Shown: positions 29,667-63,900, numbered from the stretch's first letter. The stretch: 64,000 nucleotides of DNA from an uncultured bacterium (GCA_963977015.1 CAXBMO010000005.1:96001-160000), one strand, 5' to 3'. The notes: generated by a model from the sequence alone, not told the origin. Made by a program: numbers and translations.

Positions 29667-29750
29667 AAGCGGGGGGGTGTTGGGGGATCTGTCCTGGTTC
29701 CTTCCAGGGGGGCAATTGCAGGGGCTTAGTATAATTTGTCGTCGAGCCAA

Positions 29751-29765
29751 AATTTGTGACAAATT
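29751..29765. promoter_or_regulatory. Perfect 15-bp palindrome upstream of TpsA-1, candidate transcription-factor site
   Basis: AATTTGT-G-ACAAATT, with an extra AATTTGT half-site at 29733-29739. Confidence 0.35.
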
Positions 29766-46892: not shown

Positions 46893-47057
46893 TCTAGTCC
46901 GGGGCCACCTGAGTCGCAAATCCTGGACCAACCTCCCCTTTTTCCCGGATTCGCCCCATCATTCCAGCCTTTGAGCCACTATTCGCAAAAATGGTTTTTA
47001 TATTTTGCATAATTTCCATATTTGAGATAGCCTTGATCATTGCTTACCCCAGAAGTC

Positions 47058-47447
47058 ATGAACAAGACCCTCCTGCTCACCATTACCGCACTCTTTTGCT
47101 ACATTGTGCTTCGCCCGGGAGCCGATTCCGACGCTGCTCCTGAATTCAATCACGGAACGTTCCAAACTGCGATTTCGTCCGGGAAACCCGTGGTTGTCGA
47201 CTTTCGCGCAAAGTGGTATCGCGGAAGCAATCAGCTGGCCCCGACGATCGATCAATTGGCTCAGGAAAGTGACGAAATTTACCTCGTCGGCCAACTGGAT
47301 GTTGAACGCCACAAGGATCTCATCCGCGAATACAAGGTCCGCAAGTATCCGACGGTGTTGATTTTCAAAGATGGCAAGGTCGTGGACGAACTCGACTACA
47401 GTCTGAGCGTCCGCGAAATGCAGAATCAGATTTTTCAGTATCTCTAG
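47058..47447 (+). CDS. Secreted thioredoxin-fold protein lacking the CxxC active site
   Basis: KPVVVDFRAKW-YRGS-NQLAP...YPTVLIFKDGKVV: thioredoxin fold with WCxxC replaced by WYRGS; N-terminal signal/TM. Confidence 0.7.
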   Translation: MNKTLLLTITALFCYIVLRPGADSDAAPEFNHGTFQTAISSGKPVVVDFRAKWYRGSNQLAPTIDQLAQESDEIYLVGQLDVERHKDLIREYKVRKYPTVLIFKDGKVVDELDYSLSVREMQNQIFQYL

Positions 47448-47472
47448 GAGATCGTTTCGAAATCCTTTCGAC

Positions 47473-47505
47473 AAAAAAGCCCGGAGTTCGCGAGAACCCC
47501 GGGCT
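47473..47505 (-). terminator. Rho-independent terminator of glnII
   Basis: Stem AGCCCGG-A-GTTC / GCGA / GAAC-C-CCGGGCT preceded on + by A6 (U6 on the minus strand), 36 nt after the glnII stop. Confidence 0.75.
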
Positions 47506-47541
47506 GAATTGTTTTCAATCCTTGAATTCGGAGAAACCGAA

Positions 47542-48537
47542 CTAGGAATTGACGGTCTTCAGAATCCGGGCAGCAACCTGATAAGGATCTGCATTGGAGG
47601 CTGGTCGACGATCTTCAAGGTAGCCCTTGTATCCGTTGTTGGCCGTGCCAATCGGAATCCGGATCGATGCACCACGGTCGGAAACGCCGTAGCTGAATTT
47701 GTCGATCGACTGGGTCTCGTGCAGACCAGTCAAACGCATGTCATTGCAGGAACCGTAAACTGCGATGTGCTCTTCATGAACCTTGGCAAACTTGTCGCAG
47801 ATTCCTTCGATGAGCTCTTTGCCGCCTTTTTCGCGAATGTCGGTGTTCGAAAAGTTGGTGTGCATTCCGGAACCATTCCAATCACCGGTGACCGGCTTCG
47901 GATGGAAATCGACTTCAACACCAAACTGCTCGGCAGTGCGGACGAGGATGTAGCGAGCCAACCAAGCTGCATCACAAGCCTCTTTGGCGCCTTTTCCAAA
48001 GATTTGATATTCCCACTGTCCCATCATCACCTCGGCGTTGATGCCAGTGACTTCGAGGCCGGCGGAAAGTTGAGCGTCGAGAGCTTCCTCAACGATTTCG
48101 CGGCCTTTGGCGACAGCAGAACCAGCTGAGCAGTAGTAGAGCCCCTGGGGAGCTGGATATCCGCCCTGAGGGAAACCAAGAGGAGCACCGCCCTCCATGA
48201 AGGTGTATTCCTGCTCAAATCCAAACCACATGTCCGTGTCGTCCTCAAAGGATCCGCGGAAGTTGGAGGGATGAACGCTGCCATCTGCAGCCAAAACTTC
48301 ACAAAGAACCAATGCTGCATCCTTGCGCTGGGAATCCGGAACGATTTTGACAGGCTTCAGCAAACAGTCCGATGAACTTCCTTCAGCTTGTTCCGTCGAA
48401 CTTCCATCGAAAGACCAGTCGGGAACCTGATCGAGCGAAGGGAACCCATCGCTATCGATGATCTTGGTTTTGCTGCGCATGTTTGGCTCGGGCTTGTAGC
48501 CGTCCAGCCAAATGTATTCTAGCTTATACTTAGCCAT
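47542..48537 (-). CDS. glnII: Glutamine synthetase type II
   Basis: KLEYIWLDG, WSFDGSSTEQA, WFGFEQEY, GINAEVMMGQWEYQ, RLTGLHET, DRGASIRIP, YLEDRRPASN; 331 aa. Confidence 0.93.
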   Translation of the reverse strand: MAKYKLEYIWLDGYKPEPNMRSKTKIIDSDGFPSLDQVPDWSFDGSSTEQAEGSSSDCLLKPVKIVPDSQRKDAALVLCEVLAADGSVHPSNFRGSFEDDTDMWFGFEQEYTFMEGGAPLGFPQGGYPAPQGLYYCSAGSAVAKGREIVEEALDAQLSAGLEVTGINAEVMMGQWEYQIFGKGAKEACDAAWLARYILVRTAEQFGVEVDFHPKPVTGDWNGSGMHTNFSNTDIREKGGKELIEGICDKFAKVHEEHIAVYGSCNDMRLTGLHETQSIDKFSYGVSDRGASIRIPIGTANNGYKGYLEDRRPASNADPYQVAARILKTVNS

Positions 48538-48642
48538 TTCTTCGTATGTTGTGGTTGTTTTTCCGTGTGTTAGAGGTTCAAGATCCGGGAGGGGCACGGT
48601 CCCGCAGATTCACAAAATCCGGGTTGAATCATCACGGGCAAT

Positions 48643-48660
48643 TAGCAGCACGCGTCCCAA
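48643..48660 (-). promoter_or_regulatory. Candidate sigma54 (-24/-12) promoter of glnII
   Basis: Minus strand reads TT-GG-GACGCGTGCT-GC-TA: GG-N10-GC spacing, two mismatches to YTGGCACG-N4-TTGCW. Confidence 0.5.
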
Positions 48661-48754
48661 CTTCAAGTAAAAAGCATCCCAAGACTCTTGTCACTAGCAA
48701 AACCAAAGTGAATTTGTTAGGTTTTGAACAGAATTGTCAACTTCCAACCACTTC

Positions 48755-49369
48755 TTACGGGACGTTCTGAAACCGGTTTTTCAGGTTCAGATGGCCCAGT
48801 TCTTCCGCCTTGGTCGCGAGATACGCCTCGTTAAACTCGTTTGGTGGAGTCAGGGAAGGCACGACTTCATTCACCTCCAGACCGTAACGCTTCATGGAAT
48901 CCACTTTGCGAGGGTTGTTCGTGTTCAAGTTGATTCGGTGAACCCCAAACTCTCTCAAAATGAGAGCGGCCAAACTGAAATCCCGCAGGTCAGCCGGAAA
49001 CCCAAGAATGTGGTTCGCCTCAACTGTATTTGCTCCTTTGGCCTGCTCTGCGTAAGCGCGAATCTTATTGCCGAGACCGATCCCCCTCCCCTCCTGGCGA
49101 AGATAAACCACGATGCCCCGCTTCGTCTCGCCAATGCGTTGAAGGGCCAGATCCAGCTGTTGCTGGCAATCGCATTTGAGGGAGCCGAGCACCTCACCGG
49201 TAAAACATTCCGAATGAATCCGAACAAAAACCGCCTCCTCCTCGCTGAAATCTTCGCCCATGCTGATGGCGAGTGACTCGCTTTCGTCTTGATCATTCCG
49301 AAACACGCGGACATCAAAAGTCCCACGATGGGTTGGGAGTTGGCAGTTCGAATATTCCTGGATTTGCAT
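48755..49369 (-). CDS. ribA: GTP cyclohydrolase II
   Basis: VRIHSECFTGEVLGSLKCDC, YLRQEGRGIGLGNKIRAY, NNPRK, YLATK...LGH. Confidence 0.95.
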   Translation of the reverse strand: MQIQEYSNCQLPTHRGTFDVRVFRNDQDESESLAISMGEDFSEEEAVFVRIHSECFTGEVLGSLKCDCQQQLDLALQRIGETKRGIVVYLRQEGRGIGLGNKIRAYAEQAKGANTVEANHILGFPADLRDFSLAALILREFGVHRINLNTNNPRKVDSMKRYGLEVNEVVPSLTPPNEFNEAYLATKAEELGHLNLKNRFQNVP

Positions 49370-49437
49370 CAAATCGGTTTGTTACTATACACAAATCCCA
49401 GTAGGGGGGATGCAAAAATCCAAACACACACCCAATC

Positions 49438-49956
49438 ATGACTGAAAATCGTTGGAAATGGGGCGTCCGCTGGCTCATTGCGGCAATTCTGGTCGGATGC
49501 GTGGTTTACCTGTCCAAACAAAGTCCCTATGGCTTTCTGCTCGGTCTGCCCCTGTTGATCGTCGTTGCGATTCTCATCATGCCGGAAATCCTCAAGCCAA
49601 TCAGTTGGATGGTGGATTCCCTCTTTGGAACCGGAGTCGTTTTTGGCGAACGCCCTCCTTTGGATCTCCGGCTGGCGCAACACTATGTGAAGGAGGAACG
49701 TTGGGATGATGCGATCGAGGAATACGCCCGGGTTCGCGGGTATTATCCCGCCATTCCCGATGTCTACACGGAACCGATGATCCTGCTCGCGAAGCTGGGA
49801 GCGGAGAAGGAGGAGATCGAAGAATTGTTTGCCAAGGGGCAGCACAAAATCACGGATCAGGAAGCCAAAGCAGACCTGAAACGAGCCTATGAATCCGCCC
49901 TGGAAGAACTCGGCCACCAACGCGCCGGAAACGATTCGCTCCCGATCAGTTCCTAG
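49438..49956 (+). CDS. Hypothetical membrane protein with a C-terminal TPR-like helical domain
   Basis: Two TM helices, then LRLAQHYVKEERWDDAIEEY...YP. Confidence 0.6.
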   Translation: MTENRWKWGVRWLIAAILVGCVVYLSKQSPYGFLLGLPLLIVVAILIMPEILKPISWMVDSLFGTGVVFGERPPLDLRLAQHYVKEERWDDAIEEYARVRGYYPAIPDVYTEPMILLAKLGAEKEEIEELFAKGQHKITDQEAKADLKRAYESALEELGHQRAGNDSLPISS

Positions 49957-50034
49957 TTCGAATCCGGCCCCGACGCGTCAGGTCCGTTTCCCTCGATATT
50001 GTGCGGCCCCAGAATCTCGCCGTTGCGGAGAGGA

Positions 50035-50292
50035 TCACGCAGCGATTGGCTCAAACCGGTCCCGGTTGTTCTGAATTTCGAAGCGTCCGATGTCATACTT
50101 CGTCCACCCCCACCAATCCGGAATCCCCTTCGCCGGGCGGTTGGCCGGACCTTCCGCTGTGACGATGAATTTCACGTTCTCGAGGTCGTTCTTCCGCGCC
50201 ACCACACCGAACGCCTCAAAGAAAGTTCCTTTCCCGCTCGTTTTGGCGTTCAGCATTAACAAACTCTCCAAGGGACGCCGACTCGTGGCCAT
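50035..50292 (-). pseudogene. Possible gene remnant or small hypothetical protein next to the REP cluster
   Basis: Protein-like stretch (GTFFEAFGVVARKNDLENVKFIVT...GIPDWWGWTKYDIGRFE) whose 5' side runs into the palindrome cluster; no family recognised. Confidence 0.25.
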
Positions 50293-50312
50293 CGTCGGTG
50301 AATCGCAGGACT

Positions 50313-50826
50313 CCACCGGGGTTCCCCCCCCATGGTATCGAGCCCAACCACCAGACAGCCGCCCAACAAAAGGCCGCCCCAATTGGGTTTACCCCGATTG
50401 AGCGCTGCCCCCGCTAAAACGCCGTCAAATTCTCCTGCGAGCAGGAAGGGCAGAGTTCTTCGCTCGACCGGCACAAGGCCGAATGGCGCTAACTTTAGGC
50501 CGATCATCGGCGATTCAGCCGTGGTCTCCACAGGGGTTTATCCCCGTGGAACCAAGATCAATCACAGACCTGATTCCCACCACCGCCGCCCCAACCGGGT
50601 TTATCCCGGTTGAGCACTGATTCCACCGCTGAGAGCGTCGATTGGGAGCCCGGGCGCGTCCACACAGGATCAGCGCTCAACTGGCGCAAGGCCAGTTGGG
50701 GCGGATATTTGAAAGAGGAAATTCTGTGATTGATCGGGCCTCCCACCGGGATAAACCCGGGTGGCGGGCTTCCTCAAATACAGCTCATACGGCCATAAGT
50801 TAGCGCCATTCGGCACAAGACCAACC
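50313..50826. repeat. REP/BIME-like cluster of about 8 short palindromes forming a nested inverted repeat
   Basis: Units include CCACAGGGGTTTATCCCCGTGG (50528), CAACCGGGTTTATCCCGGTTG (50592), CAACTGGCGCAAGGCCAGTTG (50678) and CCACCGGGATAAACCCGGGTGG (50743). Flanks are mirrored around about 50645. Confidence 0.75.
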
Positions 50827-50895
50827 GGGGGGGATTAAAAGCCCAAAGATTTCCCGCTCGCGTTTCAAGGAAGAGAAACGCAGGCTGAAACCAAA

Positions 50896-51609
50896 ATGCA
50901 GCCAACGAACGAAACGAAGCCGCGCGAACGGTGGACGCATCTGCCGAAACTGGCCGGCCTGCTCGGCATGTTGGTTCCGTTGCTGACGGTGGTTTTGCAC
51001 CCGGGCCTGCGCGCAGAAATGGTTGAGGGAATCCGGATTCTTTCGTCCGGCAACTTGAACGCGCTGCACGTTTGGGCGGCAGAGTTTGGCGTCTGGGCTC
51101 CTCTCGCGACGAGCGCTCTCATGATCGCGCAAGCGTTGGCCGCACCGATTCCCGCAGTTCTCGTCACCTGGACCAATGCGCTTCTCTTCGGCTGGTTTCC
51201 CGGTGGTTGCCTGTCGATCGTCTCCGCGACCGTGGCCGCTTCGATTTGCTACGGAATAGGGCGCATCTTCGGTCTGCCGCTCGCGAATCGATTCGTGCGT
51301 CCGGAGACATTGCAGCAATGGGAAAAATCCATCGACCGCTACGGCGCCAACGCCATCCTTCTCGCTCGCCTCATCCCCTTCGTCCCGTTCGATCCGATCA
51401 GCTACATCGCGGGCATCGTCCGCATGCGCTTCTGGCCATTTTTCCTCATGACGCTCCTCGGCCAAATCCCGGCCGGGTTCGCCTATTCGTATCTCGGTGA
51501 GCAAGTCACGCAACCGGCGCGATTGGTCGTGACGTCGATCTGCGTGGTCGTAGCTCTGGTCGTGATCGGCCTGACCGCGCGACGGATTTTGCAAGGACGA
51601 GAACCTTGA
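50896..51609 (+). CDS. TVP38/TMEM64 (VTT/DedA-superfamily) membrane protein
   Basis: IAQALAAPIPA...NALLFGW, LLARLIPFVPFDPISYIAG, TLLGQIP. Confidence 0.88.
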   Translation: MQPTNETKPRERWTHLPKLAGLLGMLVPLLTVVLHPGLRAEMVEGIRILSSGNLNALHVWAAEFGVWAPLATSALMIAQALAAPIPAVLVTWTNALLFGWFPGGCLSIVSATVAASICYGIGRIFGLPLANRFVRPETLQQWEKSIDRYGANAILLARLIPFVPFDPISYIAGIVRMRFWPFFLMTLLGQIPAGFAYSYLGEQVTQPARLVVTSICVVVALVVIGLTARRILQGREP

Positions 51610-51622
51610 GCCACGAAAACTC

Positions 51623-52393
51623 TCAACCTTCAATCCGGCCCATCATCAGGTTGGAGACAAAACTCACTTCATCTTCCACCTCTCCCGGCGCTGCCGTCTC
51701 GGAAACGACAGAGTCGAGCGCGCGTTTGAATTGGTCGCGGAAAGCCAGCATCTTCGCCTTCACGTTGTTTTCGTTCGTTCCCAGTTCCAGCGCGATTTCG
51801 CTGTATTTCACATGATCGCCGTCTCCCGCGCGGCCGCTCAGGTTTTGGCAGAGCAACTGAAATTCCTTCAGCTTGTCTTTCTTGCTGTAGCGCTGTGCCA
51901 ACATCCCCATCACCTGATTGATCGTCGCCTCCGCCCACTCTTTTTCGAAGATCTTGTCCGGTGACTGTTCATCGATTGCCGTATTGGCAAAACGCCCCTC
52001 GGCCCACTCAAAATCCATCGATACATGGGTTTGCGCCTTCGGCCCGCCCCGTTTCTGGGCCGACTCCTTGCGAAATTCCTTCTTTCGGAACCGGTCCAGC
52101 GCCACTTTCAGAAACGTCCGCAACCGACCGCGTTTGGGGTCCCACTGTTTGATCTGCTCCCGTTCCAGCAACTCGTTGACAATGAACGCCTGCACCAAAT
52201 CCGAGGCGTCGTCGTGCGTCTCTCTTTGTGCCCGCATAAAGGCATACATCGGATACCAGTAACGCTGAAAAAACTCCTCCAACGCCTGCTGAGAATCCAT
52301 CGGGTTATCGGAAAGAACCCGCTGGTAAAGACTCAGACTGGTTTCCGGGAACGGATTCGGGCTGCCTGCCATCGTGCTTTCTGACTCGCTCAT
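51623..52393 (-). CDS. ECF-type RNA polymerase sigma factor of the Ser/Thr-kinase-associated type
   Basis: FPETSLSL...RYWYPMYAF...DASDLVQAF...DPKRGRLRTFL (sigma2); SAQKRGG linker; YSEIALELGTNENNVK (sigma4 HTH). Confidence 0.88.
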   Translation of the reverse strand: MSESESTMAGSPNPFPETSLSLYQRVLSDNPMDSQQALEEFFQRYWYPMYAFMRAQRETHDDASDLVQAFIVNELLEREQIKQWDPKRGRLRTFLKVALDRFRKKEFRKESAQKRGGPKAQTHVSMDFEWAEGRFANTAIDEQSPDKIFEKEWAEATINQVMGMLAQRYSKKDKLKEFQLLCQNLSGRAGDGDHVKYSEIALELGTNENNVKAKMLAFRDQFKRALDSVVSETAAPGEVEDEVSFVSNLMMGRIEG

Positions 52394-52456
52394 CGCTTCA
52401 AAATGGCTCCATCTCCGGGAATTCTCCAGTGTTGAAAAAGATTCTTGGGAAAAATC

Positions 52457-52485
52457 CTAACCTGCTGAGTCGATCCGGTAAGAAG
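52457..52485 (+). promoter_or_regulatory. Bipartite motif copy E (candidate ECF promoter) upstream of the kinase
   Basis: CTAAC-N13-CCGGTAAGAAG, preceded by an A-rich tract; matches copies A-D. Confidence 0.55.
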
Positions 52486-52610
52486 CGTGCAGGACACAAT
52501 CAACCTTACTTCAAAGTCAGAATCGCTGGATCTCGCCATTTCTTCATGAACACACACACCAAGAGTTCACCATTGACCGTCAACCGCCCAAGGCTAATCT
52601 GGTCTCTCCG

Positions 52611-55600
52611 ATGCTTGGGCAATCTACTCCCGTTTGCGAAAAGTGCGGCGCTCCGCTCTGGAACAATTCTCCCGTTCCTGTTTGCGGTCGGTGCCTGCTC
52701 GTGGCTGCCGTTGTCAAAACGCAACACTCTCGCCAGTCTCAAAGGGAAGGAGGCAGCATGAAGGATGGCGATGCGACCGAACCACATCCACGCTCCAAAA
52801 GTTCCTCCCTCGGAATCGAATTGCCGGATCGTGATGAAATCCAGAAGCTCTTTCCCGAGCTGGAGATTGGTGATCTGCTCGGCGCCGGAGGAATGGGCGC
52901 CGTTTTCAAAGCGCGGCAGCCTCGGCTCAAGCGGGATGTCGCGGTCAAGATCCTCTCCAAGCGATTGGCCAGCGATCCCGAGTTCATTGCCCGCTTCGAG
53001 CGCGAAGCCCAGGCCATGGCCAAGCTCGACCATCCCAACATCGTCACGATCTACGATTTCGGCGATCGCGAGGGCTATTACTACTTCATCATGGAATTTG
53101 TGGACGGCGGTGATCTCCATCAACTCATCGCAGCGAGCAAGCTTGACCCTGCCGCCGTGCTGGAACTGGTTCCGCAAATTTGTGGCGCAATTCAATTCGC
53201 CCACGAAGAAGGGATCACTCACCGTGACATCAAACCGGCCAACATCCTGCTCGACACCAAGGGCCGGGTGAAAATCGCGGATTTCGGTTTGGCCAAAATC
53301 CTCGCCGGAACCACCGACATCTCGTTGACGATGCCTGGCACCGCCATGGGAACGCCTTTTTACATGGCCCCGGAACAGTTGATCGACACGGAAAATGTCG
53401 ATCAGCGCGCCGATATCTATTCGCTCGGCGTGGTGCTCTATCAGATGTTCACCGGCGTGCTCCCCCAAGGCGATTTCGATCCCCCCTCAAAGACCTTGCC
53501 GGATATCGGTTCGTCCGTCGATAACGCGGTCATGCGAGCCTTGGCACAGGATCCGGCGCTCCGATTCGCCGAGGTGAAAGAGATGATGGAGGCGCTGGAA
53601 TTGGTGCGGGAAGAGCGCAAGAAGCGACGGTCGAAGAAGCACAAGTCGAGTCCTGGCAAAGATCCCAGTAAGCGCAAAAGCCTGATCCCATGGGTGGTTG
53701 GCACTCTGTTGGCAGTTTTCATTGTGGCTGCCATCAGGATCTGGATGTTTCCGAACAAGGCGGAGTCGCCAATGGCCGTTCATTCGTCTGCGGCGGATTT
53801 CAATCATATCGTTGCACCGTTGGTTCCGCAAACGCGGCCCGGCCCGCTTCGAGGGTTGTTGCTGACGTCCGAAGATGAAGTTCAGTCCATGGATCTTTCC
53901 GAGGTTTCGGAGTTCAACGACTTCATCCAGGTCCGGACAACGAATGCCGGTAATCCTCCAACCATTCTGGGTCTTCGCGCAAACGGGAAAGTGATCGGCA
54001 TCAATACGCCTGAAAACTGGGAAGACGGACTCGCGTTGCTCAATCAGGGACCTCCGATTCGATTTCTCGGGCGGAACGTCATGTCCATGCAACATCTCGT
54101 TGCGATCGACGAAACCGGGGTTGCTCGCCCCCTGCTGCCAAGCCACCCTGCCCATCAGGGATTTCCTGCAAATCCGGGTGCTGAAATTGCCGATGTGAGA
54201 ACCTTCACAGACCACAGCGCCATGTTGACGGTAGATGGGCGGGTGCTCTTGTGGGGGCCCGATTTTGTAGGTGAAAACAAGTCTTGGGATATGCCGCCGG
54301 ATACCTTTCGGACCGGTGTCGAGCAAATCCGGGTCACGGAAAACGCGATTTTTCTCCGGTATGCCAACGGCGACGTTAAAGGATGGGGAGAGACGGGCGA
54401 GATCTCATTGCCCCGGGCGATGCGTCACGACGTCAAAGCCATTTCCGTCAACGCTTTTTTGCTGAGGGCCTTGGATTCGGAGGGTCGAGTCTGGTCTACC
54501 TCGTCAGAATCGCCCAATCTCCTTGGAAATGGCGGAGAGTTCGTCGCCACTGGAGTTGCTGCTCTCAAGGATCAGCCCCTCGGGATGATCGTCTACAAGA
54601 AGGCGGATAGCCGCCGGTGGGAACTAACAAGTGGCAGTGGTCCAGAGCGATGGTACGGTCCGTTCGCCGCGGAGCTTGAAAGACTTGGTGACATCCCGGG
54701 GGAAGCCTTCAATGGTGGTGGACATACAACTTCCGAGACTCGCTTTCTGGTTTGGATCGAGCCGGCGGTGGCCGAGGCAAAATTAGAACCAGTTCTGCCC
54801 ACGATGAAGCCCGGCCGATTGCGGGCAATGGGGACGATCGGACTCGACGGACGGATCGTCCCCGCATCGGAGGGACTGCCGGATGTCGATGATATTGTCC
54901 AAATCCGGACGAGCAAAATCGGCGCAATGATCGCGTTGAGAGCCAATGGCAAGCTGGTCTCCAATCTTGAGCCTTTCTCGGAAATGATTGACGCTATCGC
55001 CAAATTCAATCGCGATCATACCGCCCGGCACCTGGGGTATATGTATTATTCCGCGCATGGGTTGGTAGCGATTGATGTCCTGGGTGTTCCCAGGCCTGTT
55101 TTTCCCGACCATCCCACCCATTCCAACTTTCCTCAGCCGGACGAACCCGTGGTTGATGTCATGGGCAGCAACTCAGGCGGAGTCATGCTCACAGAGAGTG
55201 GACGAGCGATTCCCTGGGGATTGTATTACACCCGGGAAGAGGATCGCTGGGATATGCCTCCCGATGACCTGTTGACGAATGTTGAAGAGGTCGCGCTCGG
55301 TAGCTACGCCTTTTTCGTCCGGAAGAAGAGCGGCGAGGTCGTCGGCTGGAATGGGAAACAGAAGATCCTTCCCCCGGAGGAAATGCGCAGCGGAATGCAA
55401 AAAATCGCCATGCATTTCGATAGCTTGGCTGCGATAGGACCTAAGGGCAGATTCTGGCGAACACACGGAGTTTTCCGCTACACGGAACTTTTCATCAAGG
55501 GTGAAATTGAGGCCACGAATATCACAAACAGCAATCATGGAGTGGGCCTTTTGCGAACCGGCACGGGAATCTGGCAACCCACTTTCGATGCAGACCGTCC

Positions 55601-56687
55601 GCTCATGTCTCCCTTGTTGGAAAAGGTCGCCACGCTTGAGGACTACCCGGAAGATGCGTTTGTTATGGGAGGAGACGATGGCTCTCAATCGCGGTTTCTC
55701 TTTTGGATCGAGCCGAAAACGGCGGAAGCAGCCACTCCACAGATCGACCTCCCGCCGGCCCTGGCCGCGATGAAACAGCACGGCGGCGCGCTCAGCGTTT
55801 GGAAGAGTCCCGGATGGGGCGACAAGCCTTACGACATCTCGCCGGCGGAAGGGATCGGTGATTTTCACGCATTGCTCGCGGTCAGTCATTCAGGCTGGGT
55901 CGCGGCTCGGCACCGTGGCCCCTCGGTTTCGTCGCTGCCTTGGTTTCATGATCTTGACGGCCTCGATTGGGCGAGCATGGAGAGTCCGACTTATGGCGGA
56001 ACACGGGACGGAACTGTCCTGGTGTCTCGTGGAGATGGAATTACCGGATTCCAAGCGGCACGCGAGGAGCTGACCGATCTGGTTGAAGCTGGACATTGGA
56101 TCTTGCGCTCGTCGACGGGAGAAATACGGCTCGTGGTCCCCGACCTCGTCACTCAGGCGCCCGGCTGGAAAACCATGCAACGCAAATTGAAAACCCTGTA
56201 TGGCGTCCGTGCGGTTTCCAATCAGGGAACTCGGAATGGAGGGGTGATCCTTTCGGATGGATCGCCATTGTGCTGGCTCTATCGAGAAGAGGAACCCTTT
56301 GTCGAACCTCCGGAAGTGGCACGCGATCTGGTCGAACTTCATGCCTGCGCGGGCGGATGGGTAGCGTTGCGCGAGGACGGACGAGTGATCGCTTGGAACT
56401 ATCACGGGCAAACGAACAGATCCCATCACCTGACACCTCCCGGTGACCTTCCGCCTGTTACGACTTTGCGTAGCAATAATGATCTGGTCGCCGCGCAAAC
56501 GGCAGATGGAAGTTGGCGAGCCTGGGGCGGCGAGCCCACCAATCCAGAGGGGCTGGATGACACGGAAGCGATTCTCCAATTTCTCAACCAAGAAATGGGG
56601 CTAGCAGTCGATTTGGGATTCTGTAACCCGGGCACTGGCGGGCGCGTGGTGATTTGGATTGAGCCGACGGGGCTTACACCTAAATAG
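52611..56687 (+). CDS. Membrane Ser/Thr protein kinase (Hanks type) with an N-terminal Zn-ribbon and three 317-aa extracytoplasmic repeats
   Basis: CEKC...CGRC; GAGGMGAV, VAVK, FERE, HRDIKPAN, DFG and GTPFYMAPE all intact; TM WVVGTLLAVFIVAAI; repeats end in WIEP at 54753, 55704 and 56655. Confidence 0.92.
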   Translation: MLGQSTPVCEKCGAPLWNNSPVPVCGRCLLVAAVVKTQHSRQSQREGGSMKDGDATEPHPRSKSSSLGIELPDRDEIQKLFPELEIGDLLGAGGMGAVFKARQPRLKRDVAVKILSKRLASDPEFIARFEREAQAMAKLDHPNIVTIYDFGDREGYYYFIMEFVDGGDLHQLIAASKLDPAAVLELVPQICGAIQFAHEEGITHRDIKPANILLDTKGRVKIADFGLAKILAGTTDISLTMPGTAMGTPFYMAPEQLIDTENVDQRADIYSLGVVLYQMFTGVLPQGDFDPPSKTLPDIGSSVDNAVMRALAQDPALRFAEVKEMMEALELVREERKKRRSKKHKSSPGKDPSKRKSLIPWVVGTLLAVFIVAAIRIWMFPNKAESPMAVHSSAADFNHIVAPLVPQTRPGPLRGLLLTSEDEVQSMDLSEVSEFNDFIQVRTTNAGNPPTILGLRANGKVIGINTPENWEDGLALLNQGPPIRFLGRNVMSMQHLVAIDETGVARPLLPSHPAHQGFPANPGAEIADVRTFTDHSAMLTVDGRVLLWGPDFVGENKSWDMPPDTFRTGVEQIRVTENAIFLRYANGDVKGWGETGEISLPRAMRHDVKAISVNAFLLRALDSEGRVWSTSSESPNLLGNGGEFVATGVAALKDQPLGMIVYKKADSRRWELTSGSGPERWYGPFAAELERLGDIPGEAFNGGGHTTSETRFLVWIEPAVAEAKLEPVLPTMKPGRLRAMGTIGLDGRIVPASEGLPDVDDIVQIRTSKIGAMIALRANGKLVSNLEPFSEMIDAIAKFNRDHTARHLGYMYYSAHGLVAIDVLGVPRPVFPDHPTHSNFPQPDEPVVDVMGSNSGGVMLTESGRAIPWGLYYTREEDRWDMPPDDLLTNVEEVALGSYAFFVRKKSGEVVGWNGKQKILPPEEMRSGMQKIAMHFDSLAAIGPKGRFWRTHGVFRYTELFIKGEIEATNITNSNHGVGLLRTGTGIWQPTFDADRPLMSPLLEKVATLEDYPEDAFVMGGDDGSQSRFLFWIEPKTAEAATPQIDLPPALAAMKQHGGALSVWKSPGWGDKPYDISPAEGIGDFHALLAVSHSGWVAARHRGPSVSSLPWFHDLDGLDWASMESPTYGGTRDGTVLVSRGDGITGFQAAREELTDLVEAGHWILRSSTGEIRLVVPDLVTQAPGWKTMQRKLKTLYGVRAVSNQGTRNGGVILSDGSPLCWLYREEEPFVEPPEVARDLVELHACAGGWVALREDGRVIAWNYHGQTNRSHHLTPPGDLPPVTTLRSNNDLVAAQTADGSWRAWGGEPTNPEGLDDTEAILQFLNQEMGLAVDLGFCNPGTGGRVVIWIEPTGLTPK

Positions 56688-56832
56688 AGCCCGTCCCTTC
56701 TATATTGCGCTTCAATGTTAGCGCCTCTTCTATGTTGACTCGTCGTGCTTCACTCACCGCCGATCGGGTTCGTGGGACTGAGGTGGGAAATTCTTGACCG
56801 CACCATCTCCAAGCGTTTATCCATGAAGTGGA

Positions 56833-57573
56833 ATGGCAGACATCTTTCTCAGCTACAAAGGGACGGACTACGAAAAGGTCCGGGAAATCATCCAATTACT
56901 GGGCTCCCAACAGAACTGGAGCATCTGGTGGGACCGGGACATTGAGAAAGGGGAATTGTGGAGTGCTCGCATTCGTAAGGAACTTCGCGACGCCAAGTGC
57001 GTCGTGGTCGCCTGGAGCATTCGGTCCATCGATCCCATAAGCGGTAAGTGGGTTCTCGCCGAGGCAGACTATGGATTCAACAAGAACCGGCTCATTGGAG
57101 TCCGAATTGAACCGGTCGGCATCCCAGTTCCCTTTAATCAGATCCAATCCATCGACCTATTTGGGGACAAGGCCGCAGGTCGACGGGCTCTGATAAAAGC
57201 TGTTGGCGAGAAGCTGGCGAAGCGCTCGCCGGGAAAACAGAAGAAGGGCCAACTGAGATGGAAGGAACTCGTCCTCGAATGCAAGGCACTGGGCGTAGGA
57301 TTCAGCATCACCAAAAACACCTTGCGCGGTCGCCAAAGCCTTCTGATCGGTCGAGACAAAAGTTGTGACCTATGGGTGCCCTACGACGCGGTTTCTCGCG
57401 AGCACGCCCGAATCACGTTCGACAAGTACAAGGGCCCGTGCATCATTGATCTCGGATCGGCAAATGGCACCTATCTCGATCGAGGCAAGGTTGGCAAATC
57501 CCGACGACCATTGTTGAGAGCCCGACATCTGGAACTCGGGACCCTGACATTCACAGTAGAAGTTATCAACTGA
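56833..57573 (+). CDS. TIR domain + FHA domain protein
   Basis: TIR: DIFLSY...WWDRDIEKG...CVVVAWS...WVLAEA (putative catalytic Glu). FHA: LIGRDKSCD...VSREHARI...DLGSANGTY (G-R, S-x-x-H and N-G conserved). Confidence 0.85.
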   Translation: MADIFLSYKGTDYEKVREIIQLLGSQQNWSIWWDRDIEKGELWSARIRKELRDAKCVVVAWSIRSIDPISGKWVLAEADYGFNKNRLIGVRIEPVGIPVPFNQIQSIDLFGDKAAGRRALIKAVGEKLAKRSPGKQKKGQLRWKELVLECKALGVGFSITKNTLRGRQSLLIGRDKSCDLWVPYDAVSREHARITFDKYKGPCIIDLGSANGTYLDRGKVGKSRRPLLRARHLELGTLTFTVEVIN

Positions 57574-57673
57574 GCACTCGAAGACGGTTACGCTTTCGGA
57601 CTGCCTACGCTCGCCCTGCCTCTTGCTCGATTTCCATTGCCACTTCACCCTGATTCGCCTCTTAGCTTTCTGC

Positions 57674-57945
57674 ATCATGGGAAACGAACAAATTCCATCA
57701 CCTGACACCTCCCGGTGACCTGCCGCCTGTTTCGTCTCTGGGTAGCAATAGTGATCTGGTCGCCGCGCAAACCGCAGATGGAACCTGGCGAGCCCTCCTC
57801 CAAATCCGAGGAACCAGATGACACGGAAGCGATTATCCAATTTCTCAATCACGAAATGGATCCAGCAGTCGATTTGGGATTCTGTAACCCGGGCACCGGT
57901 GGGCACGTGGTGGTTTGGATCGAGCCGGCAGCTGTTGGGGAGTAG
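57674..57945 (+). pseudogene. Orphan diverged copy of the kinase 3' end (about the last 90 codons), frameshifted
   Basis: Aligns to 56401-56667 (e.g. CCATCACCTGACACCTCCCGGTGACC; GCAGTCGATTTGGGATTCTGTAACCCGGGCAC). Has an apparent deletion between two GGCGAGCC copies and its own stop at 57943-57945. Confidence 0.8.
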
Positions 57946-58011
57946 TTCTGACAAGGTGTTGGCGCGGCTTTAGACGGGAAAGTCCGGCTTGGAAAAAGAA
58001 ATCGAGAAAAT

Positions 58012-58051
58012 TTCTAATTCTCACGCCTCGGACCGGAAAGCAGGGAGTGAA
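58012..58051 (+). promoter_or_regulatory. Bipartite motif copy A (candidate ECF promoter)
   Basis: TTCTAAT-N14-CCGGAAAGCAGGGAGTGAA; ATG 58092 lies 59 nt after the start of CCGG. Confidence 0.65.
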
Positions 58052-58091
58052 ACCAATCCATCTCAATCTTCACACCCAATAAACCCAAAAA

Positions 58092-58490
58092 ATGAAAACG
58101 ACCAAATCGACCTTCACCGCTCTCATCATGGCCAGTTCGACCTTGCTCTGCCAATTCCTCAGTGCCCAGACAAGTGCGGATTATTTCAATCGGGGCAATG
58201 AAAAGGGAAGGCTTGGGGATTTTGAGGGAGCGATCTCGGACTTCACGCGAGCGATCCAACTCAATCCGAAGGCCCCTTACGCCTACCACAATCGGGGAGT
58301 GGCCAAGAAAGACTTTGGGGACGACAAGGGGGCAATCTCGGACTACTCGCGAGCAATCGAGCTCGACCCCAAGGATGCCAAAGCCTACTACTACCGGGGA
58401 AACGCCAAAACGAGCATTGGGGACACTCTGGGAGGAATGTTAGACTTCAACCAAGCGATCGCCCTAGCCCCGAAGATTGCGGGAGGTTGA
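58092..58490 (+). CDS. Secreted tetratricopeptide-repeat protein (3 TPRs)
   Basis: Signal peptide ...LSA-QTSA; YFNRG...AIQLNPK, AYHNRG...AIELDPK, AYYYRG...AIALAPK. Confidence 0.85.
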   Translation: MKTTKSTFTALIMASSTLLCQFLSAQTSADYFNRGNEKGRLGDFEGAISDFTRAIQLNPKAPYAYHNRGVAKKDFGDDKGAISDYSRAIELDPKDAKAYYYRGNAKTSIGDTLGGMLDFNQAIALAPKIAGG

Positions 58491-58622
58491 GAGGAACGGT
58501 TTCGAGCTTTGCACGATCGGTTGAAGGCGGGTTCTGGGGACGATCATGTAGTGGCCCCTGTGTGGCGAATTCCCCCGCGTTTGGGCGAGAAAACCTGGCT
58601 TGGGAAATAAATAGGAAGAAAT

Positions 58623-58662
58623 TTCTAACCTTCCCAACCCGAACCGGAAAGCAGGAGGTGAA
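58623..58662 (+). promoter_or_regulatory. Bipartite motif copy B (candidate ECF promoter)
   Basis: TTCTAAC-N14-CCGGAAAGCAGGAGGTGAA; ATG 58697 lies 53 nt after the start of CCGG. Confidence 0.65.
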
Positions 58663-58696
58663 CCCTATTTCAATCCTTCAACCTACTACCTGAACA

Positions 58697-59248
58697 ATGA
58701 ATCTGTTCGCTTTAATCGCAAACTCTGGAGGCTTTTTCTCCACCGTTGGTTCCATTCTCTTGATTGGCGCAGTTGTCATCGGGATGTGGTTCGCCTTCTT
58801 CGCCTCCGCCGAAGCCGGAGAACGGCTCGAACAACACCTGAACGGCACCCCTTCCGCGAAGGCGCTGAATCTGGTCGTCTACTTTTTCCTGCCCTGGCTC
58901 CTCGCGGCGACGTCGGTTTTACTTCTGTTCCAAATTAGCGATTGGATCCCCAAGGAACCCGACTCGTCCTTTCTTCAAAAGCTGAACTGGGCGTTGGCCA
59001 TAGCCAGCACGATTGGCTGGGCGTACGCCGCCATCGGCTTGGTAAAGTGGGATGTCTGCGGATGGGGAATGGCTCTCTTGCTCTATCCCGGCATGATCTT
59101 CGTTCCCGTCATCACCTTCAGCAACCTGCCGGAGGGATGGCAATTTCTGGCGCTGCCGATTCACACGACGCTCATCTTCGTGATCGGCGCCATCGGCTAC
59201 AACTCGAAAGCAAACCAGGAAATGCGTATCGCGATGAGCCTAGGGTAG
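58697..59248 (+). CDS. Hypothetical multi-pass membrane protein
   Basis: 183 aa with about 5 hydrophobic helices; follows motif B. Confidence 0.7.
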   Translation: MNLFALIANSGGFFSTVGSILLIGAVVIGMWFAFFASAEAGERLEQHLNGTPSAKALNLVVYFFLPWLLAATSVLLLFQISDWIPKEPDSSFLQKLNWALAIASTIGWAYAAIGLVKWDVCGWGMALLLYPGMIFVPVITFSNLPEGWQFLALPIHTTLIFVIGAIGYNSKANQEMRIAMSLG

Positions 59249-59283
59249 GAACTCCCAGCCTTCCAATTCCAACGAAAAATATC

Positions 59284-59712
59284 ATGATAAATGACCTCAC
59301 CTCCATCCTCACCGACTATTTCACCGTAGACACCATCCTGTCCTTCGCCATCCTCTTCCTCCCCGCTTTCATTGCTTGGTCTGTGATTGCCTGGTTCGAG
59401 CAACGCTCTTTTATCTTTGGCCGTTCCGAGGGTTTTCCTTGGTCACAGATCGCCTTCTCTGCGGTAGCAACGGCCGTGTTTATCGGAGGCCCCACTTTCT
59501 TTGGCTCCGTAATCCTCACACACGCTTGGAACGACGATTGGCGAGTGCATGGTTGGCAGTTTTCGTTTCTCCTCCTCGCAATCGGAATTACAGCCTACAT
59601 TTTTACCGTCCGTGGGAGCGAACCGCTCATTCTGACCGCACTCCCCTTGGGGTTATATCTTCTGCTGGTTTTCACAGCAACCTCCTTCTGGATCTCATCG
59701 GCTTTACGATAA
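59284..59712 (+). CDS. Hypothetical multi-pass membrane protein
   Basis: ATG 59284 (MINDLTS), about 4 hydrophobic helices; 35 nt after the previous gene. Confidence 0.65.
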   Translation: MINDLTSILTDYFTVDTILSFAILFLPAFIAWSVIAWFEQRSFIFGRSEGFPWSQIAFSAVATAVFIGGPTFFGSVILTHAWNDDWRVHGWQFSFLLLAIGITAYIFTVRGSEPLILTALPLGLYLLLVFTATSFWISSALR

Positions 59713-59811
59713 CTGCCAGGAAAAATCCGCGAAATTTCAGCCTTATCGTGCCAGCCCTTTCTCGGCGTTCGGTTCAGCTGATTCCCTTTCGCCAAAAAAC
59801 GAATCGCAATA

Positions 59812-59850
59812 TTCTAACCTTCCCGCCCCAGACCGGAAAGAAGGTGAGAA
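59812..59850 (+). promoter_or_regulatory. Bipartite motif copy C (candidate ECF promoter)
   Basis: TTCTAAC-N14-CCGGAAAGAAGGTGAGAA; ATG at 59875 or 59884 follows. Confidence 0.65.
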
Positions 59851-59883
59851 CCGATTAGTCTTCACACCAAGCTAATGATCCAA

Positions 59884-60549
59884 ATGAAAACCAAATACAC
59901 GATCCTTATTACGTTCACCTTCACCTTCGCCGCCTTAATCGCCCCGTTTGCCAACGCCCAGACATCTGCGAGGGAATACCAAAATCGCGGAGTGGAAAAA
60001 ACCAGGAATGGCGACCTTCGGGGGGCAATTGGGGATCTCGATCGAGCCATCCAAATCGATCCAAAACATGCGGACGCGTATGTCAATCGGGGCATAATCA
60101 AAAGTATTCTTGAAGACTACAAGGGAGCAATCTCGGACTACGAACACGCCTTGAGGATTGACCCGAATCTTGCCGAACCGGTCTACAACAATCGAGGAAA
60201 TGCCAGGAGGAAACTTGGAGATAACCAGGGAGCGATCGTGGATCTCAATCGAGTGCTTAACATCAACCCAAAACACGCCAGCGCATACCTAAATCGAGGT
60301 ATTGCGAGGCACTCCATGGGCGACAACGAGGGTGCCTACGCGGATTTCAGCCGCGCGATCCAGATCAATCCAAAGCTTGTGGACGCAACTTACAATCGAG
60401 CCATTCTCAGATACAATTCAGGTGACTACGAAGGCGCATTGATTGACGCCTCCAGGGTCATCGAGATTGCTCCAAATCATTCAAACGCACAGAACGTTCG
60501 CAAATTCGCCCGGGAAAAGATGAAAAGACAAACTCTCTTGGATCAATAG
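59884..60549 (+). CDS. Secreted tetratricopeptide-repeat protein (5 TPRs), paralog of 58092..58490
   Basis: Signal peptide ...ANA-QTSA; repeats YxNRG...A(I/L)xIxP. Alternative start at 59875. Confidence 0.85.
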   Translation: MKTKYTILITFTFTFAALIAPFANAQTSAREYQNRGVEKTRNGDLRGAIGDLDRAIQIDPKHADAYVNRGIIKSILEDYKGAISDYEHALRIDPNLAEPVYNNRGNARRKLGDNQGAIVDLNRVLNINPKHASAYLNRGIARHSMGDNEGAYADFSRAIQINPKLVDATYNRAILRYNSGDYEGALIDASRVIEIAPNHSNAQNVRKFAREKMKRQTLLDQ

Positions 60550-60737
60550 AACAGCCAACAACGGACATCCGGAAATCCTTATTGTTTCATAATCAGTAGC
60601 CATCCGGTTTTGTCAATCTCGCTGCGAAGCCCGTCTGGGCGCGAAACGGTCTGGATGTCCACATCGGTCGCCGTATTCCGCCCACCATACGAAGCAAAGC
60701 TGGTCTGACCAATATTCCCAAAGAAACGAAATCGTTT

Positions 60738-60777
60738 TTCTACCCCTGGCAGGCGATTTCGGAAAGCAGGGAGTGAA
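60738..60777 (+). promoter_or_regulatory. Bipartite motif copy D (candidate ECF promoter) without an immediately following ORF
   Basis: TTCTACC-N14-TCGGAAAGCAGGGAGTGAA; 3' half identical to copy A. Confidence 0.55.
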
Positions 60778-60968
60778 GGCAATCGATTTGCCTGAAACCG
60801 AAGATACAAGGACGGCGCGAGGACTTCCCAACTTCACCACCTTTCGCGCCCGAATCCTCTTCCACTTCGGTGGGCTCTATCATTATCCCGCATCCTGAAT
60901 CTCACAACAAATCCTCAAGCGCCAATTTGATTTTTGCCGGATTTCCGATTCATTCGGGCTCCCAATTT

Positions 60969-63900
60969 ATGAATATTACCAGATCGTCGGGTTTTCGGCT
61001 TATTATCCTCTGTTTTTCTGCCGTTGTCGGTTCTGCTTTTTTGATCAATGCGCAGACTCCCGAAGCGCCAAAATCAAAACCGCTCAAAGCGTTGCTCGTT
61101 GCCGGGGGGTGCTGTCATGACTACGCCGGCCAACACGAAGTTCTTTTCAAAGGAATTCAGGAACGTGCCAATGTGCAGGTCGACGTCTGGTGGACCGATG
61201 ACAAATCAGTCAACCCGCCACTGCCACTTTATGACAATCCTGATTGGGCAAAAGGCTATGATGTGATCATTCACGACGAATGTGCCGCCGGAAATCGCGA
61301 CCTGAAAGTTCTGGATAACATTCTGGAAGCGCACAAAACGATTCCATCGATTCACCTCCACTGCGCGATGCACAGCTTTCGCGGAAAAACCGACAAGTGG
61401 TTCAAACATCTCGGAATTCAGTCTTCAAGCCACGGGCCTCAGGAGCCGATTGACATCGAGTTCATCGACAAAAAGCATCCCATTGTTGAGACTCTGGAGG
61501 ATTGGACAACGATTAATGAGGAGCTCTACAACAATGTGAATGTTTTTGATGCGCAGCCCCTCGCGATGGGCACGCAGAAATACACCAGAAAAGGTGAGGC
61601 AAAGGAAGACGCGGCGATCGTTGTTTGGGTGAACGAAAAGCAGGGTGCGCGGAGCTTTTCAACCACGCTGGGCCACAACACGGAAACGGTTCAGGACGGG
61701 CGTTATCTGGATCTGGTGACTCGCGGATTGCTCTGGTCGATGGACCAATTGAACGCAGATTATCTGGGGAAAGCCTTCACCGGTGAGAACAAGGTTACGT
61801 TTCTGCCGAAAGTCGACGCCCCAAAACCGGAGCCGAAAGCGGCCATGGGAGCTGCGCCGAAAGACGCCACCCTGGCGAAAGTCACCGCGAGCACCGAGGA
61901 AACCGGAAAGAACAATTTTGCCTGGCGCGCTATTGATGGCGACAAAAATACCCGCTGGTGTGCCGGAAACGGGAACAAACCGCAGTGGCTTCAATTGGAA
62001 TTTGAGAAGCAGCAAACGCTCTCCGGCGCAAAGATTGCCTGGGAAAGCGGTGGCACGGCCTACCAATACAAAATCGAAGGTTCCGCAGACGGAAAATCAT
62101 GGAACGTGCTGACGGACGCTGCTGACAACAAAACAAACGGTGACTCTGAAAGCACGTTCTCTGCAAAAGCGGTTCGTTTTGTAAAAGTCACCTGCACCGG
62201 CACAACCAATCCGGGCAACTGGGCCAGCATCCGGGAATTCACCTTGAAAGGCGAAGGCATCAAATCGCTCTACCCGAAGCTTGACGAAAAACAGAAAGAG
62301 ACTGCGATAAAGGCTGAGAAAGCTGAAAGTGATCCTTATGCGAAAGCGGGAAACATTCCGCCGAAAATCGTAGCGCTGACTGAGAAAGAGGAAAAGGACA
62401 TCCTCAGCAACGTCAAAGTTCCGGAAGGTTTCGACGTTTCAGTTTTCTCGGATTGGCGCAGTGCAAATTATCCTGTTTATGTCGCAGCCGCCCCGAACGG
62501 CGACCTTTATGTTTCCAGTGACGGCAATGGCTCGCTGGGCCGGAATGCGGGTCGTGGTCGCGTTCTTCGTCTGCGTGACACCGATCATGACGGAACCGCT
62601 GACGAGGTCACTGAATTTGTCAAAGACGTCGATTCTCCACGCGGATTGATCTGGGATCAGGACCGGCTTTACCTGCTGCATCCGCCGCACATTTCAGTTT
62701 ATTTTGATAAAGACGGCGACGGTGTCGCCGAAGATTCCAAGCGTCTTATTGAAGGCATTGCTTTCGGATTTGCAGATCGTCCGGCGGATCACACCACCAA
62801 CGGACTTGATATGGGAATTGATGGCTGGATTTACATCGCGGGCGGTGATTTCGGTTTCATGAAGGCAAAAGGAACTGATGGCACCGAACTGCAGCATCGC
62901 GGCGGTGGCGTGATTCGTTTCCGCCCCGACGGCTCCGGTTTGGAAATATTCGCAACCGGAACCCGGAACATCCTCGGAACTCCGATCAGCCCACTGCTCG
63001 ACATTTTCGCCCGCGACAACACCAACGACGGTGGCGGCTGGGACGTGCGGTTTCATCATTTCACCGGTCTGGAAGACCATGGTTACCCCCGCCTTTACAA
63101 AAATTTCGGTGAAGAACACATCCAGCCGCTCGCAGATTACGGTGGCGGGTCGGGATGTGGTTCCGTTTACATTTCAGAACCCGGTTTCCCGGCAGCCTGG
63201 AACAACGCGCCGTTCACTTGCGACTGGGGAACCGGTGCTCTGTGGCAACACTCCGTTCAGCGAAAAGGCGCCACCTTTGAAGAAACGAAAGCTCCTGAGC
63301 CTTTCATTAAAATGACCCGCCCCACCGACGCGGATGTCGACGGAATGAGCGCCGTTTATCAGGCAAGCTGGCGTGGGCCGGCGACGTTCAAGTGGGCCGG
63401 GCCGGAGGCCGGTTACATTGTGAAAGTGACGCCGAAGGATTTTAAACCCGAGCCCCTTCCCGATTTCAAAAAGATGAGCAATGCGGAACTCGTAGCGGCA
63501 CTGGATTCACCAAGCCGGATCCGGACAATGGCGGCACAGCGCGCACTGCTACGACGGGACCTTCAAGAGGAAACCACAGAAGGCCTCCTCGCTCTGGCTC
63601 AGAACCCCGAAAAGCCGCTCGAAGCCCGCGTCGCCGCGGTCTATGCGATTGCCCTGTCTGAAGAAAGTGCCGCTGCTCTCAGCGCCCTCATCGAAATCGC
63701 AAAAACAGACGTGGCCATTGCCCCTTTCGCGACCCGCGCACTGGGTGATTTGAAATTCGCCAATGGAGATATTCCAAAAGCGGCTCAGGATCTTGTTGCC
63801 GGCGGATTCTCATCCGGCGACCCGCGGACCGCGACGGAGGCAATCATTTCTGCGGCCCGCCTGGGGATGAGTTCTGCAGCCGACGGAATCGCAAACCTGC

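Follow-up and report, generated by a model that had tools for sequence, protein, structure and literature searches.

A 64,000-nucleotide stretch of DNA from an uncultured bacterium (GCA_963977015.1, CAXBMO010000005.1:96001-160000), hereafter the window, contains a locus of three genes, which encode an extracytoplasmic function (ECF)-type sigma factor (P0001), a divergently oriented membrane Hanks Ser/Thr kinase (P0002) and, on the same strand as the kinase and behind it, a protein that joins a TIR domain to an FHA domain (P0003). The names given to relatives of the sigma factor and of the kinase indicate Verrucomicrobiota (Limisphaerales, Verrucomicrobiales and Prosthecobacter). An earlier interpretation of the locus, made from the DNA alone and referred to here as the sequence-only reading, had placed the three open reading frames (ORFs) at exactly the coordinates found in the present analysis (Table 1) and had proposed that one extracytoplasmic signal gives two outputs, transcription driven by the sigma factor and clustering of a TIR enzyme through the FHA domain. 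As described below, P0003 is a TIR effector whose predicted gate is of an undescribed type, and the sigma factor and kinase next to it represent a type of pair that is already known.

Table 1. Features of the sigma factor, kinase and TIR-FHA locus, in coordinates of the window
Feature	Position	Strand	Basis
ECF-type sigma factor P0001, 256 aa	51623..52393	-	TIGR02937 match, E 5e-8 (below cut-off); sigma-factor matches at the family level
Divergent intergenic region between sigma factor and kinase, 217 bp	52394..52610		No promoter-like site in consensus scan
Membrane Hanks Ser/Thr kinase P0002, 1358 aa	52611..56687	+	Pkinase match, motifs and alignment of relatives
Direct repeat, left copy (last ~90 codons of the intact kinase gene)	56398..56672	+	Repeat comparison
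Spacer from kinase stop to TIR-FHA start, 145 bp	56688..56832		Weak hairpin at 56707-56724
TIR-FHA protein P0003, 246 aa	56833..57573	+	TIR_2 and FHA matches; AlphaFold2 (AF2) model with mean predicted local distance difference test (pLDDT) of 93.1
Direct repeat, right copy (decayed fragment of the kinase 3' end)	57671..57940	+	225/263 aligned bases identical; two deletions (1 bp, 11 bp)

A TIR-FHA protein with both sets of key residues

P0003 is composed of a TIR domain (approximately residues 1-125), a basic linker (approximately residues 128-143) and an FHA domain (approximately residues 145-246), and both domains scored above their cut-offs, TIR_2 with 64.1 bits against 28 (residues 4-120) and FHA (PF00498) with 53.9 bits against 20.7. 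The stretch WVLAEA, residues 73-78, holds the motif W73xxxE77, of which E77 is invariant in 32 out of 32 TIR relatives, and in a profile of these relatives W73 and E77 align with the WxxxE motif of AbTir, formed by W204 and E208, the latter being needed for activity (PMC10641520). When this profile was compared with solved structures, AbTir came first (7uwg, E 6.6e-9), followed by PdTIR (3h16, E 4.7e-8), TcpB (4c7m, E 2.3e-6), the plant proteins RPV1/RUN1, and SARM1. In the FHA half, G173-R174, S188-x-x-H191 and N211-G212 are all present, and include the Arg, Ser, His and Asn residues through which FHA domains contact phosphothreonine. The TIR Glu of WVLAEA and the GR, SxxH and NG residues, to which the sequence-only reading had drawn attention, were thus all confirmed in P0003. 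The AF2 model of the protein has a predicted template-modelling score (pTM) of 0.63 and shows a dip in pLDDT in the basic linker, and a fold search with this model retrieved OdhI, GarA, the FHA domain of Rv0020c and EmbR with probability 1.00 and target-normalised template-modelling scores of 0.74-0.82.

Among solved structures, the TIR half is closest to the NADases of the AbTir, PdTIR and TcpB type (TIR_2), with which it has in common the WxxxE motif with the catalytic Glu, and the TIR domain of P0003 is, as predicted from these comparisons, likely to cleave NAD. These NADases carry coiled-coil or other N-terminal parts, none of them FHA, whereas P0003, a putative enzyme, carries an FHA domain. 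GarA/OdhI, the FHA domain of Rv0020c and EmbR, which are FHA adaptors linked to Hanks kinases, share with P0003 the fold and the Arg, Ser and His residues for phosphothreonine, but in those proteins the FHA domain exerts control over enzymes of metabolism, proteins of the cell wall or a DNA-binding domain, whereas in P0003 the output would be a TIR domain. The logic that we propose for P0003 is that of Thoeris ThsB, TIR-SAVED, TIR-STING and TIR-APAZ, in which the TIR enzyme is kept off until a sensor event clusters the TIR domains; while those effectors read a nucleotide or a phage part, P0003 would read protein phosphothreonine. Membership of P0003 in a Thoeris system was considered and rejected, given that the ThsB_TIR model scored below its cut-off (17.8 against 21.2) and that no ThsA-like gene (SIR2 or Macro with SLOG) was found among the neighbours scanned.

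TIR and FHA domains are fused repeatedly in bacteria

The sequence-only reading implied that the combination is singular, which is less so than it seemed, since the TIR+FHA fusion itself proved to be widespread. A word-based search retrieved three full-length relatives of P0003 only (45-51% identity), and among the 149 best representatives from an exhaustive profile search, 10 have both domains. Pfam confirmed four or more fusion architectures, among them TIR-FHA, FHA-TIR-DUF805 and proteins in which FHA occurs two or three times. In the ESM Atlas there are at least seven TIR+FHA clusters (59, 81, 67, 109, 51, 72 and 62 members, of which 100% carry FHA and 92-100% carry TIR_2), originating from Bacillota, Pseudomonadota and Chloroflexota, and structural comparison revealed one more Atlas cluster, with 500 members. 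P0003 belongs to this widespread and unstudied set of TIR+FHA fusions. No paper on such fusion proteins was found in the literature searched; FHA and TIR are listed as separate modules of conflict systems (PMC7159879, PMC8195603), and FHA goes unmentioned in a TIR survey.

Among the fusions, the TIR Glu is kept in 14 out of 14 proteins, the FHA Arg and Ser in all 17 domains and the FHA His in 16 of them. Repeated independent fusion with both residue sets kept is the best evidence presented here that phosphothreonine reading and TIR chemistry may act together. It could be supposed instead that P0003 is a non-enzymatic adaptor, in which the TIR domain serves protein contacts only and the FHA domain ties it to the Ser/Thr phosphorylation network, with no NAD+ chemistry, as TIR domains are classically scaffolds (PMC8494770, PMC8635717) and the W73 position is occupied by Phe or Tyr in 4 of the 14 fusions. 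However, given that the Glu is kept in every fusion as well as in all 32 relatives, and that the nearest solved relatives AbTir, RUN1 and SARM1 are active NADases, we regard such an adaptor as distinctly unlikely.

Other forms of fusion were found among the wider TIR relatives, 78 out of 148 of which have a hydrophobic segment after an N-terminal TIR domain, with TPR, FGE-sulfatase, Ig-like or other domains lying beyond it. Judged from sequence, this arrangement of TIR domain, membrane segment and outer domain looks like the layout of a receptor. TIR-TPR fusions are also common among the TIR relatives (P0053, P0082 and P0111).

A receptor kinase and an ECF-type sigma factor of a known type of pair

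P0002 is, as had been anticipated, an intact membrane kinase, with a Pkinase match of 181.2 bits (E 3.3e-53), the catalytic motifs VAVK (position 110), HRD (204), DFG (224) and APE (253), and one hydrophobic segment. In an alignment of 31 relatives, K113, E132, HRD, N211 and DFG are invariant. At its N-terminus the protein carries a zinc-ribbon-like CxxC...CxxC motif, and it further consists of a kinase domain at approximately residues 86-345, a single transmembrane segment at approximately residues 355-378 and an outer part of approximately 980 residues, which comprises three modules, each ending in WIEP (715, 1032 and 1349); the first two modules share 31% identity over 314 aa, and RCC1-like matches were weak. 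The public gene call of the kinase (P0199) begins at M50 and gives 1309 aa, but the longer ORF, with M1 at 52611, appears to be the more likely one, because the relatives conserve M1 and the N-terminal CxxC...CxxC motif. The activation loop contains several Thr residues, including T234-x-x-I237, which, given the preference of FHA domains, may be an FHA site. FGE-sulfatase-like domains, which are found at the far end of TIR proteins (L075 10001-11236, and an Atlas cluster of 70 members), occur likewise in the kinase relatives P0200, P0201 and P0207, so that the same kind of outside sensor is connected with a TIR domain in some proteins and with a kinase in others.

The kinase domain also matches kinase models of the PADLOC defence-system collection, for example PD-T4-6 (E 2.4e-80). 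Since bacterial TIR NADases are common defence effectors and conflict systems include both FHA and TIR among their modules (PMC7159879, PMC8195603), this match raises the question of whether the locus is an abortive-infection or anti-phage system, in which the kinase would sense infection and the FHA-recruited TIR domain would deplete NAD+. We consider this very unlikely, for several reasons. The PADLOC kinase matches cover the generic kinase domain only, and P0003 matched no system protein model of PADLOC-DB 2.0 (best E 0.012) and had no full-length match on 72,556 plasmids and 50,697 phages. The neighbouring genes have housekeeping or envelope functions, with no defence island, integrase or tRNA gene among them, and tRNA genes were not found across the whole window. 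Moreover, a kinase with an outer sensor of approximately 980 residues is better suited to signals from the environment than to a phage inside the cell.

By its own sequence, P0001 is a weak case of a sigma factor, as it remained below the curated cut-offs of TIGR02937 (32.7 against 42.9 bits) and Sigma70_r4_2 (15.6 against 25.7 bits, E 0.013) and gave chance matches only when compared alone with PDB sequences (E 0.8). At the level of the family, the ECF assignment of the sequence-only reading holds. Among 18 aligned relatives, Sigma70_r2 was detected in 10, Sigma70_ECF in 8 and Sigma70_r4_2 in 8; all 15 matches of the family profile in the PDB (E up to 1) are sigma factors, the best one being SigE (E 8.2e-5); and the ESM Atlas clusters of P0001 are named as sigma-70 family, with a score of 0.98. 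The AF2 model of P0001 is of moderate quality (pLDDT 70.7), and its top fold matches are ECF sigma factors with E 0.02 or weaker. The sigma-2.2 stretch reads D62-A-S-D65-L-V-Q68 (D-x-x-D-x-x-Q), with D65 invariant in 18 out of 18 relatives.

No anti-sigma family was detected among the neighbours scanned, and the Hanks kinase lies divergent to the sigma factor gene, at a distance of 217 bp. Pairs of a sigma factor and a Ser/Thr kinase that lack an anti-sigma factor have been described as a class, comprising ECF43, ECF59-62, ECF217, ECF267 and ECF283 (PMC7826278; PMC8999054), and direct sigma-factor phosphorylation was demonstrated for EcfK/PknS (PMC13147305). The sigma factor and kinase of this locus are a member of this known type of pair: as in ECF43 (EcfP/PknT and EcfK/PknS), ECF59-62, ECF217 and ECF283, the sigma factor gene lies beside that of a membrane Hanks kinase, with no anti-sigma gene nearby among the neighbours scanned. 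Assignment to the ECF43 group itself fails, since the sigma-2.2 region of that group has an uncharged motif with a phospho-acceptor Thr (QTTA consensus), whereas P0001 has the charged DASDLVQ in its place (PMC13147305). As far as the available portions of these sources extend, the described sigma factor-kinase pairs include no TIR-FHA gene, whereas one is present here. If the kinase acts on P0001, a conserved linker of the latter (SAQKRGG...) would be a candidate site. The region of this linker, noted at residues 112-117, is unstructured in the AF2 model, with pLDDT below 50 for residues 116-141.

The TIR-FHA gene is a secondary insertion

The TIR-FHA gene is bracketed by a direct repeat of approximately 270 bp, the two copies of which are 86% identical (Table 1). 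Because the gene sits between the working end of the kinase gene and a dead duplicate of that same end, it is a secondary insertion that arrived after the kinase existed, which bears out the caveat of the sequence-only reading that TIR-FHA looked like a later insertion. In the right copy the frame is broken by the two deletions, and across codons 56397-56684 the copies show 8 synonymous and 26 non-synonymous codon differences, a pattern that fits neutral decay. An ORF in this copy, at 57715-57945, still reads '...DLGFCNPGTGGHVVVWIEP'. The unit between the copies consists of the TIR-FHA gene with its 145-bp leader and a trailer of approximately 97 bp. Where the copies differ, the closest ortholog of the kinase, P0201, matches the left one at about 7 sites and the right one at about 4, as counted by eye, and either copy may be the native one. 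An arrival of the left copy together with TIR-FHA would mean that the end of a kinase gene lay beside TIR-FHA in the donor already.

A foreign composition of the TIR-FHA gene was rejected, as no difference from its neighbours was found: GC is 0.541 against 0.544 for the window, and GC at third codon positions (GC3) is 0.636 against 0.631 for the kinase gene. The insertion is therefore either old or derived from a related genome. An origin from a mobile element was rejected as well, with no full-length match in the plasmid and phage collections mentioned above and no tRNA gene or Rfam family nearby (no Rfam family reached threshold in 47000-62000). The decayed repeat adjoining the gene and the lack of a promoter-like site upstream of it in the consensus scan could indicate that TIR-FHA is neutral cargo, carried along by a rearrangement and at present without a function where it lies. 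This seems highly improbable, given that the ORF is intact, with all key residues kept, and that it does not differ in composition from its neighbours while the repeat on its flanks shows 14% divergence, from which we infer that the gene has long been kept open.

Scans of 51000-59000 for regulatory signals gave nothing above chance: the 2 promoter-like and 9 terminator-like sites compare with shuffle means of 2.8 and 10.7, respectively. Two 8-mers are common to the region between the sigma factor and kinase genes and the region upstream of TIR-FHA, where 0.82 would be expected, and a number as high as this occurs in 22.6% of 500 shuffles. A promoter motif common to both intergenic regions was accordingly rejected, in line with the remark of the earlier interpretation that TIR-FHA lacks the shared motif.

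A putative phosphothreonine-gated TIR enzyme

Our tentative proposal, in which we place somewhat less than even confidence, is that the locus consists of a known type of signalling pair and a later-arrived TIR-FHA protein, the FHA domain of which would dock on phosphothreonine made by a Hanks kinase, with clustering then triggering NAD+ cleavage. The pair is the kinase with its large outer sensor and the divergent ECF-type sigma factor, with no anti-sigma factor visible. The FHA domain would dock the soluble P0003 on a phosphothreonine written by a Hanks kinase, carried either by that enzyme or by one of its substrates, and docking would crowd the TIR domains and turn NAD+ cleavage on, leading to NAD+ depletion or to a signal nucleotide. 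The soluble FHA form would plausibly get its signal second-hand, by borrowing a receptor. The neighbouring kinase is the first candidate for the writer, and any Hanks kinase of the cell could serve. As in the described pairs, the sigma factor is probably under the control of the kinase as well, by way of phosphorylation, and would be its transcriptional branch. P0003 can reasonably be read as a TIR enzyme gated by phosphothreonine; for its coupling to the neighbouring kinase in particular, the evidence is their adjacency on one strand, with no terminator signal above chance, and is thin.

Genomic context of the relatives

Several observations weigh against the proposed phosphothreonine gate and its coupling to a kinase. 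In a sample of 80 loci of TIR relatives, the titles of which show none from Verrucomicrobiota or Planctomycetota, a Hanks kinase was found within approximately 10 kb in only two, and an FHA domain, scanned for with a neighbour profile built from 17 domains, lay near the TIR relative in only two. The only other TIR-FHA gene with a readable context, from an alphaproteobacterial metagenome-assembled genome (MAG) (L001, 51% identity), is surrounded by genes for solute-binding, RecO, VTT, dehydrogenase and DnaK proteins, with no Hanks kinase or sigma factor in 20.7 kb. At the locus itself, no phosphatase or other partner gene was detected among the neighbours scanned. With regard to the protein, TIR domains are able to act as plain scaffolds, the FHA Asn (N211 position) is kept in only 7 of the 17 domains of the fusions, and the fold search with the whole model returned, among the matches listed, FHA entries only, the TIR half being placed by sequence profiles.

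In one of these few loci, from an alphaproteobacterial MAG (L072, 9968-14139), the gene for a TIR-only relative of 318 aa is convergent with, and slightly overlaps, that for a 1110-aa AAA-Pkinase-FHA protein, a suggestive pair that may be a split counterpart of the association of TIR, kinase and FHA.

These data also bear on whether the three genes form a dedicated three-part module, in which one outside signal would activate the neighbouring kinase and thereby both sigma factor-driven transcription and FHA-mediated TIR clustering. TIR-FHA adjoins the kinase gene on the same strand, 145 bp behind it, the activation loop of the kinase has the possible FHA site mentioned above, the L072 relative lies tail to tail with a gene for an AAA-kinase-FHA protein, and an incoming left repeat copy would imply a donor with a kinase end beside TIR-FHA. 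Nevertheless, TIR-FHA is a secondary insertion, its L001 counterpart lacks both a kinase and a sigma factor over 20.7 kb, and the two intergenic regions have no common motif above chance, and we consider a dedicated module unlikely. What stands of the two-output module of the sequence-only reading are its domains and residues, together with the recurrence of the fusion and the known type of the sigma factor-kinase pair, while nothing supports a conserved trio of kinase, sigma factor and TIR-FHA.

Other features of the window

Upstream of the three genes lie a glutamine-synthetase-like ORF and genes for GTP cyclohydrolase II and a VTT/DedA membrane protein, and downstream of them are genes for two secreted-looking TPR proteins and a ThuA/DUF7133 protein. 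The glutamine-synthetase-like ORF (47542-48597, minus strand, 351 aa) has a partial catalytic domain (profile positions 64-155 of 344) and an N-terminal domain, and may be a truncated or divergent glutamine synthetase copy. The small TPR proteins (58092-58490 and 59875-60549, plus strand) have signal-peptide-like N-termini and lie on either side of membrane-protein-like ORFs, immediately downstream of the repeat's decayed copy.

A second FHA protein of the window, 45 kb from the kinase, is an FHA-MoxR AAA ATPase (5917-7461, minus strand) with FHA, AAA_3 and bpMoxR matches, which is followed by a DUF58/vWA protein (4956-5954, minus strand); this pair recalls the vWA-MoxR systems (PMC7159879). 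In addition, two giant ORFs on the minus strand (22674-29762, 2362 aa, and 30388-39681, 3097 aa), each with an N-terminal two-partner secretion domain, look like tandem two-partner-secretion exoproteins.

Implications for TIR signalling

Nucleotides, phage parts and partner proteins are known activators of bacterial TIR enzymes, and no description of TIR control by protein phosphorylation was found in the literature searched. If the FHA domain gates the TIR domain, Ser/Thr kinase signalling would be linked directly to NAD+ chemistry, and hundreds of unstudied TIR+FHA proteins in several phyla would have a testable function. The locus described here is a convenient test case, with a candidate kinase next door, and its flanking duplication illustrates how a signalling pair already in place can acquire a gene of this kind.

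Because about half of the TIR subfamily has a receptor-like layout, and the FHA form would do without a receptor of its own, one may further speculate that TIR-FHA proteins are soluble output adaptors for receptor Ser/Thr kinases, which would convert an outside signal, by way of phosphothreonine, into NAD+-derived chemistry beside the branch run by the sigma factor. We give this broader idea a low likelihood; if true, such proteins would constitute a bacterial counterpart of animal receptor-adaptor-TIR signalling.

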